Shown piece by piece: positions 5,293 through 29,274 of a stretch of DNA of 32,000 bases (position 1 is the first letter of the stretch; every line of letters starts with the position of its first letter). Source of the DNA: Sulfolobus acidocaldarius DSM 639 (GTDB lineage Archaea; Thermoproteota; Thermoprotei_A; Sulfolobales; Sulfolobaceae); the NCBI RefSeq assembly GCF_000012285.1, contig NC_007181.1, forward strand, positions 900,001-932,000, read 5' to 3'. The position numbers and the translations under genes are program-made. Under the pieces are notes generated by a model, which was given only the letters and a program-made list of their open reading frames with translations, was not told the origin of the DNA and made no database searches.

Positions 5293-6213
5293 TTACTTAA
5301 AAATGTCCTTAAGTAGTGCCCCAATCATCACTGTCACTTGACGTGAAGTCCTTGGTGAACCCAAAAATGCATGAACATTGCCATTTACTCTAAAACTTAA
5401 TGTTGGGACACCAGATTCCATGAGCCTATAGGCATAAGCTTCTCCTTGATCCCTCAAAGGATCGTACTCTGCAGTAACGACTATAGCCTGAGGTAAGTTA
5501 GATAAGTCCTCTGCAATTAAGGGTGAAAATAATGGATTGTATAAATCTTTCTCATCTCTTATATACATTTTAACGCCGTAATCTACTGGCAAATTGATGT
5601 CAAGAAAGTACCCTTTCCTGTATCTGTTCATTGATTTTGACGCAAGATCGAGGTATACAAAAGGAACTACAGGTACTTGTGCAGTCAATTTCAATTTATT
5701 GTCTCTAGCCAACAGTGAAGTAGCAGCAACCAAATTACCTCCAGCACTTATTCCAAATGTGGCAATCTTATCCTTATCAATACCAAGTTCTCCCGCATTA
5801 TCCCTTGCCCACACTATAGCATTGAAACAATCATAGACTGCGGTTGGAAATTTATATTCAGGCGCAAGTCTGTAGTCAACCGATATGACTGTGCACTCGC
5901 AGGAGTTTGAGAGAATTCTTGAGATAGCATCTTCAGTCTCTATACTCCCTAATATCCACGCTCCTCCATGAAAGTGCATTACCAGTCCGTTGTTGGTCCT
6001 TTTAATGGGTGAATATATTCTGATGGGCAGCTCATAATCCTCTAACTTTATTTTCATATCTCTAGTTTCTCCCACAGGATCCTTTGGCACCGCCTTTGCC
6101 AACAATTCATTTACTTTTTGTCTAATTTCCTGGAACTGATATTTGGTGAAATCTATTATGTTAGCCTTATAATAAACTTGAAGGAAATTCCTCACTTCAG
6201 GATCCAACGGCAT
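5293..6213 (-). CDS. Carboxylesterase, hormone-sensitive-lipase (HSL, alpha/beta-hydrolase fold-3) family
   Basis: HFHGGAW is an HGG oxyanion motif variant. GISAGGNL is the GxSxG nucleophile elbow. C-terminal DPLRDQGEAYA and H(A/G)F match HSL family members. It is a paralog of 19178..20095. No N-terminal signal peptide is evident. Confidence 0.85.
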   Translation of the reverse strand: MPLDPEVRNFLQVYYKANIIDFTKYQFQEIRQKVNELLAKAVPKDPVGETRDMKIKLEDYELPIRIYSPIKRTNNGLVMHFHGGAWILGSIETEDAISRILSNSCECTVISVDYRLAPEYKFPTAVYDCFNAIVWARDNAGELGIDKDKIATFGISAGGNLVAATSLLARDNKLKLTAQVPVVPFVYLDLASKSMNRYRKGYFLDINLPVDYGVKMYIRDEKDLYNPLFSPLIAEDLSNLPQAIVVTAEYDPLRDQGEAYAYRLMESGVPTLSFRVNGNVHAFLGSPRTSRQVTVMIGALLKDIFK

Positions 6214-6266: not shown

Positions 6267-7436
6267 CTACCTAATTTGTGTCTTATAAACCCTTGAGTAT
6301 ATTGCTGATACCACAGGAATGGATACATCAACTTTACAGTGGGAACCATTGTAGACGTCCAGATGACCATATTTCTCTAAAAGTATCATACTATAAGGAC
6401 GATTTCCAGGGAAGGGATTATTGCTCAGCCTACCTGCTGATAATCCAAAGCCACTTATTATATCTAGGATAGGTAAGGATATTTTGCTGTACATGTTGTC
6501 AAAATCATACTTTAGATAGGGGCATTCCTTCCAGTCTAACATTGTCTGAGTTTCAAGGTATATCCTTATTGGCCAATATCTGTCAAAGGTGGACATTGTA
6601 TGTACTAACACTCTCGGATCATTATACCCTGCATATACGTTTGTTAGTAATCCCGGACCCCAACCGCTATAGAGAGTAAAAGTTGCCCATTCCAATATGT
6701 TATTCCATTTTTCACCTGTAATTGGATTGATTCTAGGTTCAAGAGGCTCTCCCGTTACAGGGTTTGTCGGTGGTGCATTAGGATTCTTATCGATATATTT
6801 AAAGAGGAAGAGAGCCCCCTTAGTACCTCCAACTTCCATTGCCCAACTCTTCGTATTCTTGATTTTCTCTAAGAGACCGTCAAAATCAAGAGAATTAGTA
6901 GGTTGCCTTAGAATAGGTCCTCCATCGAGTAAAATTAGACTCTCCAAGTCCTCAGGGAATAGAGTTGCAAAATTTACTGTAGCTAATCCTCCAAAACTTT
7001 CACCAGCTAAGAAGACCCTTTTAAAGGAAGATATCTCTTTAATAAACTCTACAACCTCCTTAATGTCATTTATCCATTGCTCCCATCCCCAATCAACCAT
7101 AAAGCCGAATTCACTCGGATCTTTCTCAGGAGACAGGAAGTGAGTCCTATAATCCATTAAATAAACATCAATGCATCTATTAGCCCAAAAGAAAGGCTCA
7201 TCAATGTCTTCATTTCTCTTCCAATCATCATCTACCGTATTAGCAGATAACTGTTCACCACTACTCCATGTTCCTGGGAGTATTAGGAGAGAGGCTATGG
7301 GTTTACATTCCTCCTTGATTAGCCTATGAACACCAATAATCCCTGAGGGTGGCGTTTTAGACTCCTTCGTCCAATAATAGTGTTTTAAACTAGGATAATC
7401 TTTACATTTGTACTCTTGTCTCAAATTCCATGTCAT
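6267..7436 (-). CDS. Alpha/beta hydrolase, lipase-like
   Basis: VFLAGESFGG is a GxSxG nucleophile elbow. Preceded by LILPGTWSSG. 389 aa, no obvious signal peptide. Sits next to the esterase and divergent from the TetR regulator. Confidence 0.65.
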   Translation of the reverse strand: MTWNLRQEYKCKDYPSLKHYYWTKESKTPPSGIIGVHRLIKEECKPIASLLILPGTWSSGEQLSANTVDDDWKRNEDIDEPFFWANRCIDVYLMDYRTHFLSPEKDPSEFGFMVDWGWEQWINDIKEVVEFIKEISSFKRVFLAGESFGGLATVNFATLFPEDLESLILLDGGPILRQPTNSLDFDGLLEKIKNTKSWAMEVGGTKGALFLFKYIDKNPNAPPTNPVTGEPLEPRINPITGEKWNNILEWATFTLYSGWGPGLLTNVYAGYNDPRVLVHTMSTFDRYWPIRIYLETQTMLDWKECPYLKYDFDNMYSKISLPILDIISGFGLSAGRLSNNPFPGNRPYSMILLEKYGHLDVYNGSHCKVDVSIPVVSAIYSRVYKTQIR

Positions 7437-7474
7437 AATTAAATTATGCTCCGGCTTGTTTATATTTCTTGATT

Positions 7475-7602
7475 AAAATTAAACTATTTGATTTATCAAA
7501 TGTATTTGTGTAAATAATTTTTCTTCACTCCAAATCCTATTAGGAAAGCTGACACTGAACCGACCTTTTAACTACAATGATAGTCGACTCAAAAATCAAG
7601 TA
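7475..7602 (+). repeat. Copy A of a duplicated promoter-operator module (its last 40 bp, 7563..7602, are identical to 8022..8061)
   Basis: Three collinear identical blocks are shared with copy B: aaaattaaactatttg (7475-7490 / 7918-7933), aatgtatttgtgtaaataat (7499-7518 / 7952-7971), and the 40-mer accttttaactacaatgatagtcgactcaaaaatcaagta (7563-7602 / 8022-8061). Confidence 0.9.
7582..7601 (+). promoter_or_regulatory. Candidate TetR operator, copy A: AGTCGACT palindrome plus ACTCAAAAATCAAGT box
   Basis: Perfect 8-bp palindrome AGTCGACT at 7582-7589, overlapping an ACT-N9-AGT dyad at 7587-7601. Further (A)GTCGA(C) cores lie at 7609-7614 and 7788-7794. Confidence 0.45.
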
Positions 7603-7917
7603 TAATATAGTCGAAATATGCCCTCTTGAATAAAACCATGAAATATAAATGAGTCTATTCTGATCTGATAAAGTTCAAACGTGCCATATTTCCTCGCGGA
7701 TTTGCTTGCTGTATTACACGTAAGCTTTTCACTTTAAATGGCAAATGATGTTGCTAGCTTCTTCCAGGTCTTCTCCTTTTAAAGAGAAGTCGACGTAGAG
7801 CCTCTAAATAAGCCTTTTGACATTAAATTATAAAATGTGGAGAGCCTCGCCCTTTAGAGTGTGGAAGAAGTCAGTGGCACAGTTCTCTTCGTTTAAGCTT
7901 TTTTGTATCTCTTCATC

Positions 7918-8061
7918 AAAATTAAACTATTTGTTTTATTCATTATATCTTAATGTATTTGTGTAAATAATCTTCTTTATTCTAATCAATAAAATTATCG
8001 GAGAAGTTTATTATCGAGTTTACCTTTTAACTACAATGATAGTCGACTCAAAAATCAAGTA
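7918..8061 (+). repeat. Copy B of the duplicated promoter-operator module, ending 11 nt before the TetR regulator start codon
   Basis: Same three identical blocks as copy A, offset by 459 bp for the 40-mer. Contains TTTTAA (8025-8030) as a candidate TATA box and the AGTCGACT palindrome. Confidence 0.9.
8041..8060 (+). promoter_or_regulatory. Candidate autoregulatory TetR operator in the regulator promoter: AGTCGACT palindrome plus ACTCAAAAATCAAGT box
   Basis: Palindrome at 8041-8048 and ACT-N9-AGT dyad at 8046-8060. They lie between the TATA-like TTTTAA (8025-8030) and the start codon (8073/8076), a position suited to promoter occlusion. The SD-like GGTGGTG lies just downstream. Confidence 0.55.
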
Positions 8062-8072
8062 GTAAAGGTGGT

Positions 8073-8663
8073 GTGATGTATAGGGCTCCTAAAACAGAAA
8101 AGGGAAAGGAATCACTAAATAAAATACTTGATGCCTCTGTTGAGCTAATTGCTGATAAGGGTTTTCTAAGCACTAGTATAAACGATATTACAAGTAAGGC
8201 TGGAGTTGCTTATGGTCTTTTCTACTTTTACTTTAAGAGTAAGCATGACATTTTAGATGAGATAATAAGGCAGTTTAACAGAAATATGAGATATTATTTG
8301 AAAACATATACACAGAACCTAGACAGTAGGATTGATGTGGAAAAAGTAGGAATGAAGAAATTCTTGGAGTGGATGAACGAGAACAAGAAGTATTATAAGA
8401 TATTCATTGAAACACAAGTCCATAGACCTGATATATATAAGTGGCACTTCATGAAGCTAGCCGAGAGATATACTACGGGTCTTTCTGAGGCAATGAGGAG
8501 GGGTGAGATAATAAATGTAGACCCTGAGTTACTGTCTTACGTTTTAATCGGTATAGCCCATATGCTTGGTAAAAGGTACGTCTTGTGGAGTAACTCTGGG
8601 CTTACATTAAAACAACAGAGAGACTTGGACTTAATTATAGAAAATATGTTAACACCAAGGTAA
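8073..8663 (+). CDS. fadR: TetR-family transcriptional regulator (acyl-CoA-responsive FadR-like)
   Basis: The N-terminal HTH is typical of TetR (LDASVELIADKGFLSTSINDITSKAGVAYGLFYFYFKSKHDIL), followed by a ~140-aa ligand domain. The gene is embedded in a beta-oxidation cluster. The start is GTG 8073 or the adjacent ATG 8076. Confidence 0.8.
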   Translation: MMYRAPKTEKGKESLNKILDASVELIADKGFLSTSINDITSKAGVAYGLFYFYFKSKHDILDEIIRQFNRNMRYYLKTYTQNLDSRIDVEKVGMKKFLEWMNENKKYYKIFIETQVHRPDIYKWHFMKLAERYTTGLSEAMRRGEIINVDPELLSYVLIGIAHMLGKRYVLWSNSGLTLKQQRDLDLIIENMLTPR

Positions 8664-18124: not shown

Positions 18125-19132
18125 TTATGGCTTTATAAGAATTTTACCATGTCTTTTTCTGTCCTTCAACATATCTAAAGCCTTATCAAAATCCTCTATT
18201 GATACCTCACCACCTATAACTGGCGTAATCTTATTTTGCCTAACCATCTCCAATGTGTCCACTATGTCCTTCTTTGTAGCCCCGGCATGTCCAATTAACT
18301 CAACATTCTTTAGGACTAAGTAACCTAGCCTTAGACTGAAATTGACAGAGGGATCAATATTCCCTACTTGTACTATCTTACCACCTATTTTCAGTGACCT
18401 CATACTCTCATCAAGAGTAGGACCTCCTACATTGTCCACTACTATTGAAGGTTCTCCAAATCCCTTTCTAACCTCTTCAGCAAACTTGTTCCCAACTACC
18501 ACGTAATCTGAAAATTTTCCAACGATCTTAGCCTTACTCTCTTCACTTGTTACTCCTACTACTTTTGCTCCTAAAGCTTTAGCAACCTGAAGGGCATGAA
18601 TACCAACACCACCTCCTGCACCAGTCACTAAAACTATATCCCCCTGCTTTACATTAGCTCTCTTAAGCCCTCTGTAAATCATTGCAGCAACACAGGGAAC
18701 TACTACAGCCCCTTCATCTGAAACTCCAGGAGGGACTTTAACAAGAGAGTTTGCTTTCACAAGTATTCTCTCTGCGAAAAATCCGTCAAGCTCCTGTGCA
18801 TAGAGTTGTCTGTTGTTACAATATATCTCTTCTCCCATCTTACAGTTGTCACAAGTCCAATCTGGAACGTAAAGTAGTGAGGTCACAATATCACCCTTTT
18901 TGAATCCCTCAACACCTTCTCCAACTTCCTCAATTTCTCCTACCATCTCATGCCCCAATATAAGAGGGTATTTTGAGCGGGGATAAAATCCTTGGATCTG
19001 AAGAAGGTCTCTATAACATAGTGCTGCTTTCCTTAACTTTACCACAACTTCTGATTTACCTGCCTTTGGCTCTTGCACGTTTTTATCTATTTTATAACCT
19101 TGTTTAAAACCTGGAAGAATTACAGCTTTCAT
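18125..19132 (-). CDS. Zinc-type medium-chain dehydrogenase/reductase (alcohol dehydrogenase / enoyl-thioester reductase-like)
   Basis: GHEMVGEIEEVGEGV is the catalytic Zn motif. CDNCKMGEEIYC is the structural Zn loop. VLVTGAGGGVGIHALQVAK is the NAD(P) binding motif. 335 aa. Confidence 0.75.
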   Translation of the reverse strand: MKAVILPGFKQGYKIDKNVQEPKAGKSEVVVKLRKAALCYRDLLQIQGFYPRSKYPLILGHEMVGEIEEVGEGVEGFKKGDIVTSLLYVPDWTCDNCKMGEEIYCNNRQLYAQELDGFFAERILVKANSLVKVPPGVSDEGAVVVPCVAAMIYRGLKRANVKQGDIVLVTGAGGGVGIHALQVAKALGAKVVGVTSEESKAKIVGKFSDYVVVGNKFAEEVRKGFGEPSIVVDNVGGPTLDESMRSLKIGGKIVQVGNIDPSVNFSLRLGYLVLKNVELIGHAGATKKDIVDTLEMVRQNKITPVIGGEVSIEDFDKALDMLKDRKRHGKILIKP

Positions 19133-28136: not shown

Positions 28137-28141
28137 GCTTT

Positions 28142-28156
28142 ACTTTACCTTTCAGT
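28142..28156 (-). promoter_or_regulatory. ACTGAAAGGTAAAGT box (ACT-N9-AGT) just upstream of the ACAD-ACS-thiolase-DUF35 operon start (candidate TetR/FadR site)
   Basis: The minus strand reads aaaagcttaataggACTGAAAGGTAAAGTaaagcATG. It matches 11/15 to ACTCAAAAATCAAGT and has the same ACT...AGT dyad ends. Confidence 0.35.
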
Positions 28157-28307
28157 CCTATTAAGCTTTTCTTCCAGACCGTTTATTAAAAATGTGGATT
28201 TGAAAGACTAAGCGGAAATCTGCTTTTTTCCTTAGCCTCTTTCCTTATTTAAAAGTTTTTTATGATGTTTTTAAGGTAAGGACAGAGATTTTCCACTTAT
28301 AATTATA

Positions 28308-28338
28308 CTACTTGGGGGCAGTTTTGCAAAGTTATTAG
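28308..28338 (+). repeat. Conserved intergenic element, copy 2 (ctacttGGGGGCAGTTTTGCAAagTTATTAG)
   Basis: See copy 1. It lies in the 0.47-kb noncoding region upstream of the ACAD operon. Confidence 0.5.
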
Positions 28339-28622
28339 TTATATCTATAGGATTAGTGTTATGTTTATTTGAAAAATTAGAACTGCCTTTAAAATAATCA
28401 GTTGATTATAATGTCAACTTTATAAAAGTTTAAACATAGTAGGTCGGGTCTGCCAGGCGTGAATATAGTGATATTAGAAAGTAGTAAATTATACTTTTGA
28501 ATACTTTTTGGATACGAAGTGTAACATGTTGTTTAAAATTTCTTGATCTTTATTAACAGTTCTACAATAACGAAGACACGCATATGGCTTAAGATTTAAA
28601 AATATTGGCAACTAGGAGGGAG

Positions 28623-28964
28623 ATGGAAACATGTCTTATCGCCATATTCATGTATTGTGAGCTTGATTACGTAAAGGTTAATATAAGCACGTACGTATAT
28701 ATAAAGGTTAAGGTTAAACTATCTATAGATAGTGAAGTTTTAAAGAAGGCTAAAGAACTTGCCGTTGAAAGAAAGGTCACTCTCAGTGAGATTTTCGAGA
28801 AAGCAGTATCAGAACTTGGTAACTTGTCAACTGTCAATAAGATTATGAGAGAATTAGATCTATCGCCTAGGCTTATTTCCTTTGAGGAAGTTACCAAGAG
28901 TAGAATTACCTTAAACGCCAGTGATTTAGTTGGGGAAATGAGAGATGAACTATTTAGATACTAG
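28623..28964 (+). CDS. vapB: Type II antitoxin, VapB-like (RHH/CopG-like)
   Basis: KLSIDSEVLKKAKELAVERKVTLSEIFEKAV is typical of archaeal VapB-type antitoxins. The 3' end overlaps the start of a PIN-domain reading frame. Start is uncertain (TTG 28605, ATG 28623, ATG 28650). I chose 28623 because TTTAAAAATA (28595-28604) lies ~25 nt upstream and AGGAGGG immediately precedes it. Confidence 0.55.
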   Translation: METCLIAIFMYCELDYVKVNISTYVYIKVKVKLSIDSEVLKKAKELAVERKVTLSEIFEKAVSELGNLSTVNKIMRELDLSPRLISFEEVTKSRITLNASDLVGEMRDELFRY

Positions 28965-29273
28965 CACAATAGTTAAGAGATACTTTAATGAGCCTGGCAG
29001 CCAGAAAGTGGACTAAGTATATGGAGATGCTCGGAAAGGTTCACTGACTATCTCATTTTCGACATGGAGCATGAAGAGTTAGCTTATTTAGGCATTTTCA
29101 AGACTCCTATTAACATGTTACCCTTAAATCAGTATATCGACAGTGGTTCAAACTCATAATAATGTTCCAGTCTACCCACTACTTTAGATACGGGTTTAAA
29201 TTATAACGGACTTTTTCACTTAGACTCTACTGGCATACTCGCAAAGGAAAATAAAAATAAAATGAAGTACTAA
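28945..29273 (+). pseudogene. vapC: Decayed PIN-domain toxin gene (vapC remnant)
   Basis: ATG 28945 opens MNYLDTSTIVKRYFNEPGSQKVD, a canonical PIN N-terminus with the LDTS acidic motif. The frame hits TAA at 29014-29016, resumes as VYGDARKGSLTISFSTWS, and stops again at 29080. Only weak frame-shifted similarity follows. The 3' limit is approximate. Confidence 0.55.
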
Positions 29274-29274
29274 C

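Follow-up and report, generated by a model that had tools for sequence, protein, structure and literature searches.

This work reports that the two identical FadR operators in the Saci_1106/fadR (Saci_1107) intergenic region of Sulfolobus acidocaldarius DSM 639 are part of a larger repeat, in which an entire control module of about 150 bp is present twice and only copy B appears to have kept the fadR TATA box, and that this duplication is specific to S. acidocaldarius, is located at a synteny breakpoint and brackets a spacer of 294 bp. The two operators themselves are already known, having been described in 2019 on the basis of in vivo, in vitro and structural data (Wang 2019, Nat Commun 10:1542, PMC6449355). 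As for the spacer, we lean towards reading it as relic DNA that was enclosed by two selected operators at the junction of a rearrangement, although this leaves its GC content and its persistence partly unexplained.

The window, that is, the whole 32-kb stretch of DNA analysed, spans NC_007181.1 900,001-932,000, and a genome coordinate equals the window position plus 900,000; the published FadR motif positions 906727, 909604 and 930823 and the Saci_1123 operator all recur in the window with an offset of exactly 900,000. The region under study is bordered by two genes:

6267-7436, minus strand: Saci_1106, alpha/beta hydrolase (Pfam Hydrolase_4), 100% identical to the S. acidocaldarius protein, heading the leftward genes.
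8076-8663, plus strand: fadR (Saci_1107), TetR-family repressor (Pfam TetR_N), 100% identical to the S. acidocaldarius regulator.

The fadR reading frame (8073-8663) has 196 codons from the GTG at 8073 and the database protein has 195 aa, which implies that the start is probably the ATG at 8076; the intergenic region measures 636 bp to the GTG and 639 bp to the ATG. RefSeq annotates no pseudogene and no other feature between SACI_RS05270 and SACI_RS05275. A second, independent S. acidocaldarius assembly (L001) is identical across 6.6 kb, the spacer included, and the neighbouring genes are unchanged in the remaining contigs with the same fadR protein.

The duplication is the most prominent repeat of the window, and aligning one half of the Saci_1106/fadR intergenic region with the other gave z = 35 against shuffles. 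It contains three ungapped direct repeats, namely 7454-7505/7897-7948 with 81% identity, 7499-7521/7952-7974 with 96% identity, and 7563-7602/8022-8061 with 40 of 40 bases identical. The resulting elements are as follows:

7454-7602, plus strand: module copy A, 149 bp, from the direct repeats and the gapped alignment to copy B.
7897-8061, plus strand: module copy B, 165 bp, from the direct repeats and the gapped alignment to copy A.
7475-7490 in copy A and 7918-7933 in copy B, unstranded: identical 16-nt block AAAATTAAACTATTTG, whose minus-strand reading is the top-scoring BRE/TATA candidate of the region (9.7).
7499-7518 in copy A and 7952-7971 in copy B, unstranded: 20-nt block AATGTATTTGTGTAAATAAT, identical between the copies.
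7603-7896, unstranded: spacer X, 294 bp, 37% GC, in which no gene, RNA family, repeat or operator was recognised.

The two collinear copies that the earlier note had described at 7475-7602 and 7918-8061 are real and extend slightly further than it stated, and the 40-mers that it placed at the copy ends are indeed identical. Among the details that it read within the 40-mer, TTTTAA (7566-7571) and AGTCGACT (7582-7589) are present, while the dyad given as ACT-N9-AGT is in fact ACT-N8-AGT. Without the 40-mer, copies A and B share 86 matches in 108 aligned bases, with 22 mismatches and 18 gap columns, corresponding to 80% identity, and at this background 40 identical bases have a P of about 1e-4. 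The 16-nt and 20-nt blocks are unique to the two copies within the 32 kb; selection on them was considered and dropped, since 80% identity by itself leads one to expect such runs. The GC content is 28% in copy A and 21.5% in copy B.

The 40-mer coincides with the FadR operator in both copies:

7563-7602, plus strand: 40-mer of copy A, a complete two-dimer FadR operator, ChIP-seq peak 1 and the 'Saci_1106 operator' of Wang 2019.
[quoted passage not shown]
7584-7599 (genome 907,584), plus strand: 16-bp FadR motif TCGACTCAAAAATCAA of copy A, an exact match to Supplementary Table 2 of Wang 2019, with a weaker overlapping site at 7577-7592.
8043-8058 (genome 908,043), plus strand: 16-bp FadR motif TCGACTCAAAAATCAA of copy B, an exact match, with a weaker overlapping site at 8036-8051.

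The two highest FadR ChIP-seq peaks were reported to fall in this intergenic region, with the motif in both and equal enrichment, and both operators were verified by ChIP-qPCR, EMSA, and DNase I and Cu-phenanthroline (Cu-OP) footprinting (Wang 2019, PMC6449355). The operators were termed 'quasi-identical', with a '24-bp repeat' marked, and each was described as a high-affinity site bound cooperatively by two FadR dimers, the second dimer lying upstream and contacting a C:G pair 11 bp upstream of the motif CG; the cocrystal structure was solved with the copy B site and contains two separate DNA duplexes, and acyl-CoA was reported to release FadR, the response being shown on the copy A probe (PMC6449355). 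In the same report, the operator of copy B was placed just downstream of the TSS, and that of copy A, the Saci_1106 operator, more than 130 bp from the promoter, a position termed non-paradigmatic for which long-range interactions were suggested; Saci_1104-1106 were de-repressed in the fadR deletion strain, and the FadR repression across the cluster was weak and spread out (PMC6449355). How FadR represses Saci_1106 from about 150 bp upstream is left unexplained in the literature as well. With ChIP-seq, EMSA and footprints all reported positive for copy A (PMC6449355), the neutral scar that the earlier note had considered does not describe this copy. The available portion of the text of Wang 2019 (PMC6449355) contains no mention of the 40-bp identity, the module of about 150 bp or the missing fadR TATA box in copy A, and no account of the 294-bp GC-rich spacer.

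Scored with a FadR operator matrix built from published and orthologous sites, the motif reaches 15.1 at both 7584 and 8043, and a second FadR-like site, which overlaps the main motif and lies 7 bp upstream of it, reaches 7.3 in each copy. The motif G (7586 and 8045) has a C 11 bp upstream of it (7575 and 8034), so that the C:G pair of the second dimer is present in both copies. By our estimate, the two-dimer site covers roughly 7568-7600, and the 40-bp identity approximates this site plus a few flanking bases. The operator is the semi-palindrome T(T/C)GA-N8-TCA(A/G), with 12 matches in the window versus 5.1 expected, and not the AGTCGACT palindrome as such, for which this role had been suggested. 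We conclude that the perfect identity of the 40-mer is due to selection for the complete operator or to gene conversion.

In an archaeal core promoter, an A/T-rich 8-bp TATA box lies about 24-30 bp ahead of the transcription start and is preceded by a BRE rich in purines. In this cluster, the promoters have such a BRE and an 8-bp TATA box, and the ATG, which is leaderless, follows after 20-23 nt; a matrix built from 18 of these promoters gives 32 matches in the AT-rich 639 bp, so single matches mean little. The following positions were compared:

8001-8014, plus strand: fadR BRE/TATA GAGAAG-TTTATTAT, matrix score 8.2 (99.96th percentile), predicted start near 8037, layout kept in relatives.
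7543-7556, plus strand: the homologous position in copy A, GGAAAG-CTGACACT, matrix score -3.8, no TATA box.
7459-7467, minus strand: candidate TATA-like box of Saci_1106, AAATATAAA, 22 nt before the ATG, a spacing like that of the cluster promoters.
7476-7489, minus strand: alternative Saci_1106 promoter candidate within the identical 16-nt block, matrix score 9.7, predicted starts near 7453 and, for copy B, 7896.
7595-7608, plus strand: speculative junction promoter candidate ATCAAG-TATAATAT, matrix score 6.6 (99.8th percentile), start near 7631, found only at the copy A/spacer border.

As the predicted fadR start is near 8037, the operator of copy B would lie just downstream of it, in agreement with the published placement, and copy B, with the autoregulatory operator and the BRE/TATA, is the control region of the regulator, as had been assumed. 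Copy A, by contrast with its -3.8 versus 8.2 at the homologous positions, appears to have retained the operator and not the fadR core promoter. The CTTTTAAC/TTTTAA shared within the 40-mer obtains promoter scores of only 2.8 (copy B) and 0.0 (copy A); the 40-mer is the operator and the beginning of the transcribed region, not a duplicated core promoter, and the earlier proposal of TTTTAA as a TATA box and of copy A as a promoter pointing into the spacer was not supported. Since copy A seems to be without the fadR TATA box, it is less likely that a duplicated promoter drives transcription into the spacer. On the minus strand, the Saci_1106 mRNA would be leaderless if the TATA-like box at 7459-7467 is used, and the counterpart of this box in copy B carries two G/C substitutions. 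The block scoring 9.7 is intact in both copies, and therefore copy B could still fire leftward into the spacer. The BRE part of the junction candidate overlaps the right half of operator A.

The elevated GC content that had been estimated for 7603-7917 at about 37-43% and called coding-like was confirmed at 37.1%, compared with 11-29% in most other spacers of the window and 34-37% in two short convergent ones, and with 25.7% at fourfold-degenerate sites. Every frame of the 294-bp spacer contains 4-9 stops, the best codon-usage score in any frame is 0.08 versus 0.38 +/- 0.18 for genes, and the period-3 signal of 1.83 falls just under the 95th percentile of shuffles (1.96). The longest ORF touching the spacer (7817-7966, plus strand) extends into copy B and has 43 codons from an ATG and 49 from a TTG; the previously stated maximum of 43 codons thus stands when counted from ATG and fails when counted from TTG. 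Six-frame fragments yielded no homologue among 5.8 billion proteins, and a 45-aa piece found nothing in a full HMMER scan of 1.84 billion representatives, both being weak tests for short broken fragments. On the RNA side, the best Rfam matches, C/D-box sRNAs included, reached 14-21 bits where the thresholds are 43-90 (E above 1), inspection by eye revealed no C box paired with a D box in the spacer, and the fold z-scores against shuffles were -1.3 for the plus and -1.0 for the minus strand. Neither the decayed gene nor the small RNA that had been put forward for this segment thus gained positive evidence. Oligo-T runs flank the spacer on both strands, with a T5 run on the minus strand at 7591-7595 and the following element on the other side:

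7899-7904, plus strand: T6 run, judged from its sequence a possible archaeal terminator for a plus-strand spacer transcript.

The additional cores GTCGA (7610-7614) and GTCGAC (7789-7794) represent two loci versus about 0.2 expected, which is marginal, and the best FadR matrix score inside the spacer is 3.8 versus 15.1 at the operators, so that the extra operators or decoy array read from these cores were rejected. An aCcr1/ccr-2 box was also considered and dropped, the one GTATTA (7711-7716) being at chance frequency.

The searches for the origin of the spacer gave no source sequence for the supposed relic in the window, among the flanking genes of relatives or in protein, phage, plasmid and viral collections. 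Both local and global alignment of the spacer with the fadR 5' end gave z about 0, and a tandem duplication carrying a fadR 5' fragment was rejected on this result. For one carrying a Saci_1106 5' fragment, there is just a doubtful resemblance of 7603-7667 to 7391-7453 over 65 nt, whose z against simple shuffles is 3.5 and whose register does not fit a simple duplication. The spacer showed no similarity to any ORF of the window and has no other copy there; comparison with the neighbours that fadR or the hydrolase gene has in relatives (MFS transporters, HpaB, ADH, STK_08120-like and a 147-aa ORF) remained at noise level, and nothing in the upstream regions of fadR or the hydrolase of relatives could be aligned with it. 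No terminal inverted repeats were found at 7603/7896, and the phage, plasmid and viral collections contained nothing relevant. A metagenome scan with an operator 20-mer returned one chance match in an unrelated GC-rich contig (L053), and among the results of a scan of genome collections with FadR there was no close relative of S. acidocaldarius.

Of the genomes that have both genes, that of Sulfolobus sp. A20-N-F8 (A20; 68% identity for the hydrolase and 74% for FadR) is the nearest; in it, the hydrolase gene and fadR are on the same strand, 5.7 kb apart, with MFS, STK_08120-like, HpaB and MFS genes between them. The orthologues of HpaB and SDR (82% and 76%) are located elsewhere in S. acidocaldarius. 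This difference in gene order and the relocation of HpaB and SDR indicate that the cluster has been rearranged and that the spacer lies at a synteny breakpoint. The upstream regions of the A20 hydrolase gene and fadR share no similarity (z about 0); therefore, the module duplication is specific to S. acidocaldarius. In A20, a FadR-type motif lies 131 bp upstream of the hydrolase ATG, the chance of finding the motif anywhere in that spacer being about 0.07, and the distance from copy A to the Saci_1106 ATG is 148 bp. The similar distances support copy A as a genuine operator of the hydrolase gene, and not a scar or a pure decoy.

Based on these findings, we propose that a control module of about 150 bp was duplicated in the S. 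acidocaldarius lineage alone. Copy B, with its BRE/TATA at 8001-8014 intact and its operator about 5-20 nt past the predicted start, would let FadR directly repress its own gene, and copy A, its TATA box lost, would serve the leftward Saci_1106 promoter as a remote operator from about 150 bp upstream. The identity of the 40-mer against about 80% elsewhere could then be due to gene conversion or to selection that preserves the two-dimer site as a whole. The 294 bp would be non-coding DNA trapped by the duplication or rearrangement that joined Saci_1106 to fadR, and their 37% GC would point to an origin outside long-standing promoter DNA, formerly coding or foreign, rather than to a present function. 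Several observations argue against relic DNA. The GC content of a relic should drift down, yet it is 37% versus 26% at fourfold-degenerate sites, so the spacer would be young or its composition held. Prokaryotes usually delete useless DNA, yet the spacer is identical in L001. The searches described above also gave no sequence from which a relic could derive. The spacer has moreover the outline of a transcription unit, with an AT-rich left edge that carries a promoter-like site (6.6), a GC-richer body and the T6 at the right end, and copy B keeps the identical leftward promoter-like block aimed into it.

These observations bring up the alternative, which we regard as unlikely, that the spacer encodes a FadR-controlled non-coding RNA on either strand, so far unannotated and about 270-300 nt long. 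It would run rightward from a start at 7595-7631 to the T6 at 7899-7904, or leftward from near 7896 to the T5 at 7591-7595, and operator A would be an ordinary promoter-proximal operator, by which the 'non-canonical' place of the published operator would be accounted for. Such an RNA is favoured by ATCAAG-TATAATAT, whose BRE overlaps the right half of the operator, by the block directed leftward in both copies, by the flanking oligo-T runs and by a GC content above the neutral level, but the fadR-type TATA box is destroyed in copy A, promoter matrix matches are cheap in such AT-rich DNA, the spacer has no Rfam family and no C/D pair by eye and folds no better than shuffles, and the table of the 2025 atlas lists no antisense RNA for these genes, although the annotation file of the atlas, considered up to 580 kb, ends before this locus. 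The narrower claim that the RNA is acyl-CoA-inducible and FadR-repressed, with operator A promoter-proximal, is very unlikely; if true, a FadR-repressed spacer RNA would be the first case of a regulatory RNA linked to fatty-acid metabolism in archaea. It would bear on the published puzzle, which is the FadR repression from more than 130 bp upstream (PMC6449355).

The coding-like GC, the weak period-3 signal, the location at a rearrangement breakpoint and the weak 65-nt resemblance would also fit the remnant of a coding gene between two FadR-controlled promoters, or a truncated fadR or Saci_1106 copy left by tandem duplication. We hold this to be decidedly unlikely, as no frame has a coding-like codon score or fewer than four stops, RefSeq has no pseudogene here, and the spacer resembles neither the fadR 5' end nor the window ORFs nor the flanking genes of relatives; a copy of a neighbouring gene that had diverged as far as the modules, by roughly 20%, would stay recognisable. 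The zero matches in the protein searches, weak for short broken fragments, point the same way. Copy A might, finally, mainly cooperate with copy B, either by titrating FadR as a second high-affinity site and setting the level of autoregulation or by anchoring a 459-bp repression loop with the spacer as the loop. In favour of this, the identical sites A and B show the same occupancy in vivo, the cocrystal contains two separate duplexes, long-range interactions were proposed, and the cluster is under weak, diffuse repression (PMC6449355). However, Saci_1104-1106 are de-repressed upon fadR deletion (PMC6449355), the A20 hydrolase gene has its own FadR-type site with fadR 5.7 kb away, which argues that the site serves the hydrolase, the spacer contains no further operators, and the 459 bp between the operators correspond to 43.7 helical turns, with no obvious phasing; this cooperation is therefore highly improbable as the main role of copy A. 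The preferred reading continues to be relic DNA between two selected operators.

In comparison with known systems, the FadR sites resemble the QacR-type TetR operators, in which two dimers occupy overlapping inverted repeats on opposite DNA faces, since both module copies likewise have an overlapping site 7 bp upstream of the main motif, a comparison that Wang 2019 drew too (PMC6449355). Unlike the QacR type, FadR(Sa) was reported to bind other operators as a single dimer and to have an Asn37 dimer-to-dimer contact unreported for bacterial members (PMC6449355). The fadR spacers of Saccharolobus solfataricus and A20 measure 264-284 bp, face an MFS transporter gene and hold one module with no GC-rich insert, and the same overlapping pair of FadR-like sites recurs upstream of fadR in A20. 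In the fadR regions of both genomes, as here, the BRE/TATA is followed after about 26-28 nt by the operator T(T/C)GA-N8-TCA(A/G), a Shine-Dalgarno-like GGTG and the ATG, and the order of TATA box, operator, GGTG and ATG is common to a metagenomic relative as well.

In both copies of the duplicated control module between Saci_1106 and fadR (Saci_1107), a weaker FadR-like site overlaps the main 16-bp motif at a 7-bp offset, and the fadR upstream region of Sulfolobus sp. A20 likewise holds an overlapping FadR-like pair with a 7-bp shift (L054:12824 and 12831, L054 being the Sulfolobus sp. A20-N-F8 DNA that carries both orthologues). This combination of weaker site and main motif fits the published two-dimer binding mode of FadR. 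The features concerned are the following (window coordinates unless L054 is named):

7577-7592 and 8036-8051: weaker FadR-like site overlapping the main motif, S. acidocaldarius copies A and B
8067-8073: Shine-Dalgarno-like run GGTGGTG preceding the fadR start
28402-28417: palindromic Saci_1123 operator
28605-28964: 119-codon TTG ORF
L054:5870-5885: FadR-type motif TTGATACTAGAGTCAG, Sulfolobus sp. A20-N-F8

In the metagenome scan, the operator 20-mer matched a single contig (L053, Ga0179593_1592423, 6116-6135), which was rejected as a Sulfolobus relative, the contig being GC-rich and unrelated and the match due to chance.

The mechanical ORF call places the fadR start at GTG 8073, while the length of the database protein, 195 aa, implies a start at ATG 8076. 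Given the Shine-Dalgarno-like run ahead of this ATG, the fadR mRNA is therefore leadered, in contrast to the surrounding cluster, whose genes are mostly leaderless. Saci_1107 is also listed in the literature as a ccr-2 (aCcr1) box gene with cell-cycle-dependent expression (PMC9976892). The sole exact GTATTA seed of the spacer region falls within the GC-rich segment between the copies (TGTATTAC, 7710-7717), a chance-level frequency, and TGTATTTG is present in a duplicated 20-nt block (7499-7518 / 7952-7971).

Elsewhere in the window, a perfect palindrome of FadR type, TTGACAGAGGGATCAA (18342-18357; matrix score 14.3), sits within ORF 18125-19132 and may be ChIP peak 3, a low-enrichment peak already reported for Saci_1115. 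Another long spacer (28137-29274; 1138 bp, 33% GC) contains the Saci_1123 operator and the 119-codon ORF; the latter could be the divergently oriented gene for a transcription factor to which Wang et al. 2019 refer.

Leaving aside one orthologue in Sulfolobus sp. A20 (68%), the nearest homologues of Saci_1106 (6267-7436) are ~500-aa proteins of Promethearchaeota (Asgard) and Bathyarchaeia (~46% identity); the remaining Sulfolobaceae hydrolases are only ~30% identical, a distribution that may reflect horizontal transfer. In Sulfolobus sp. A20-N-F8, TTGATACTAGAGTCAG lies 131 bp upstream of this orthologue, and the placement of motif relative to hydrolase reproduces the remote geometry of copy A, yet fadR is 5.7 kb distant there.
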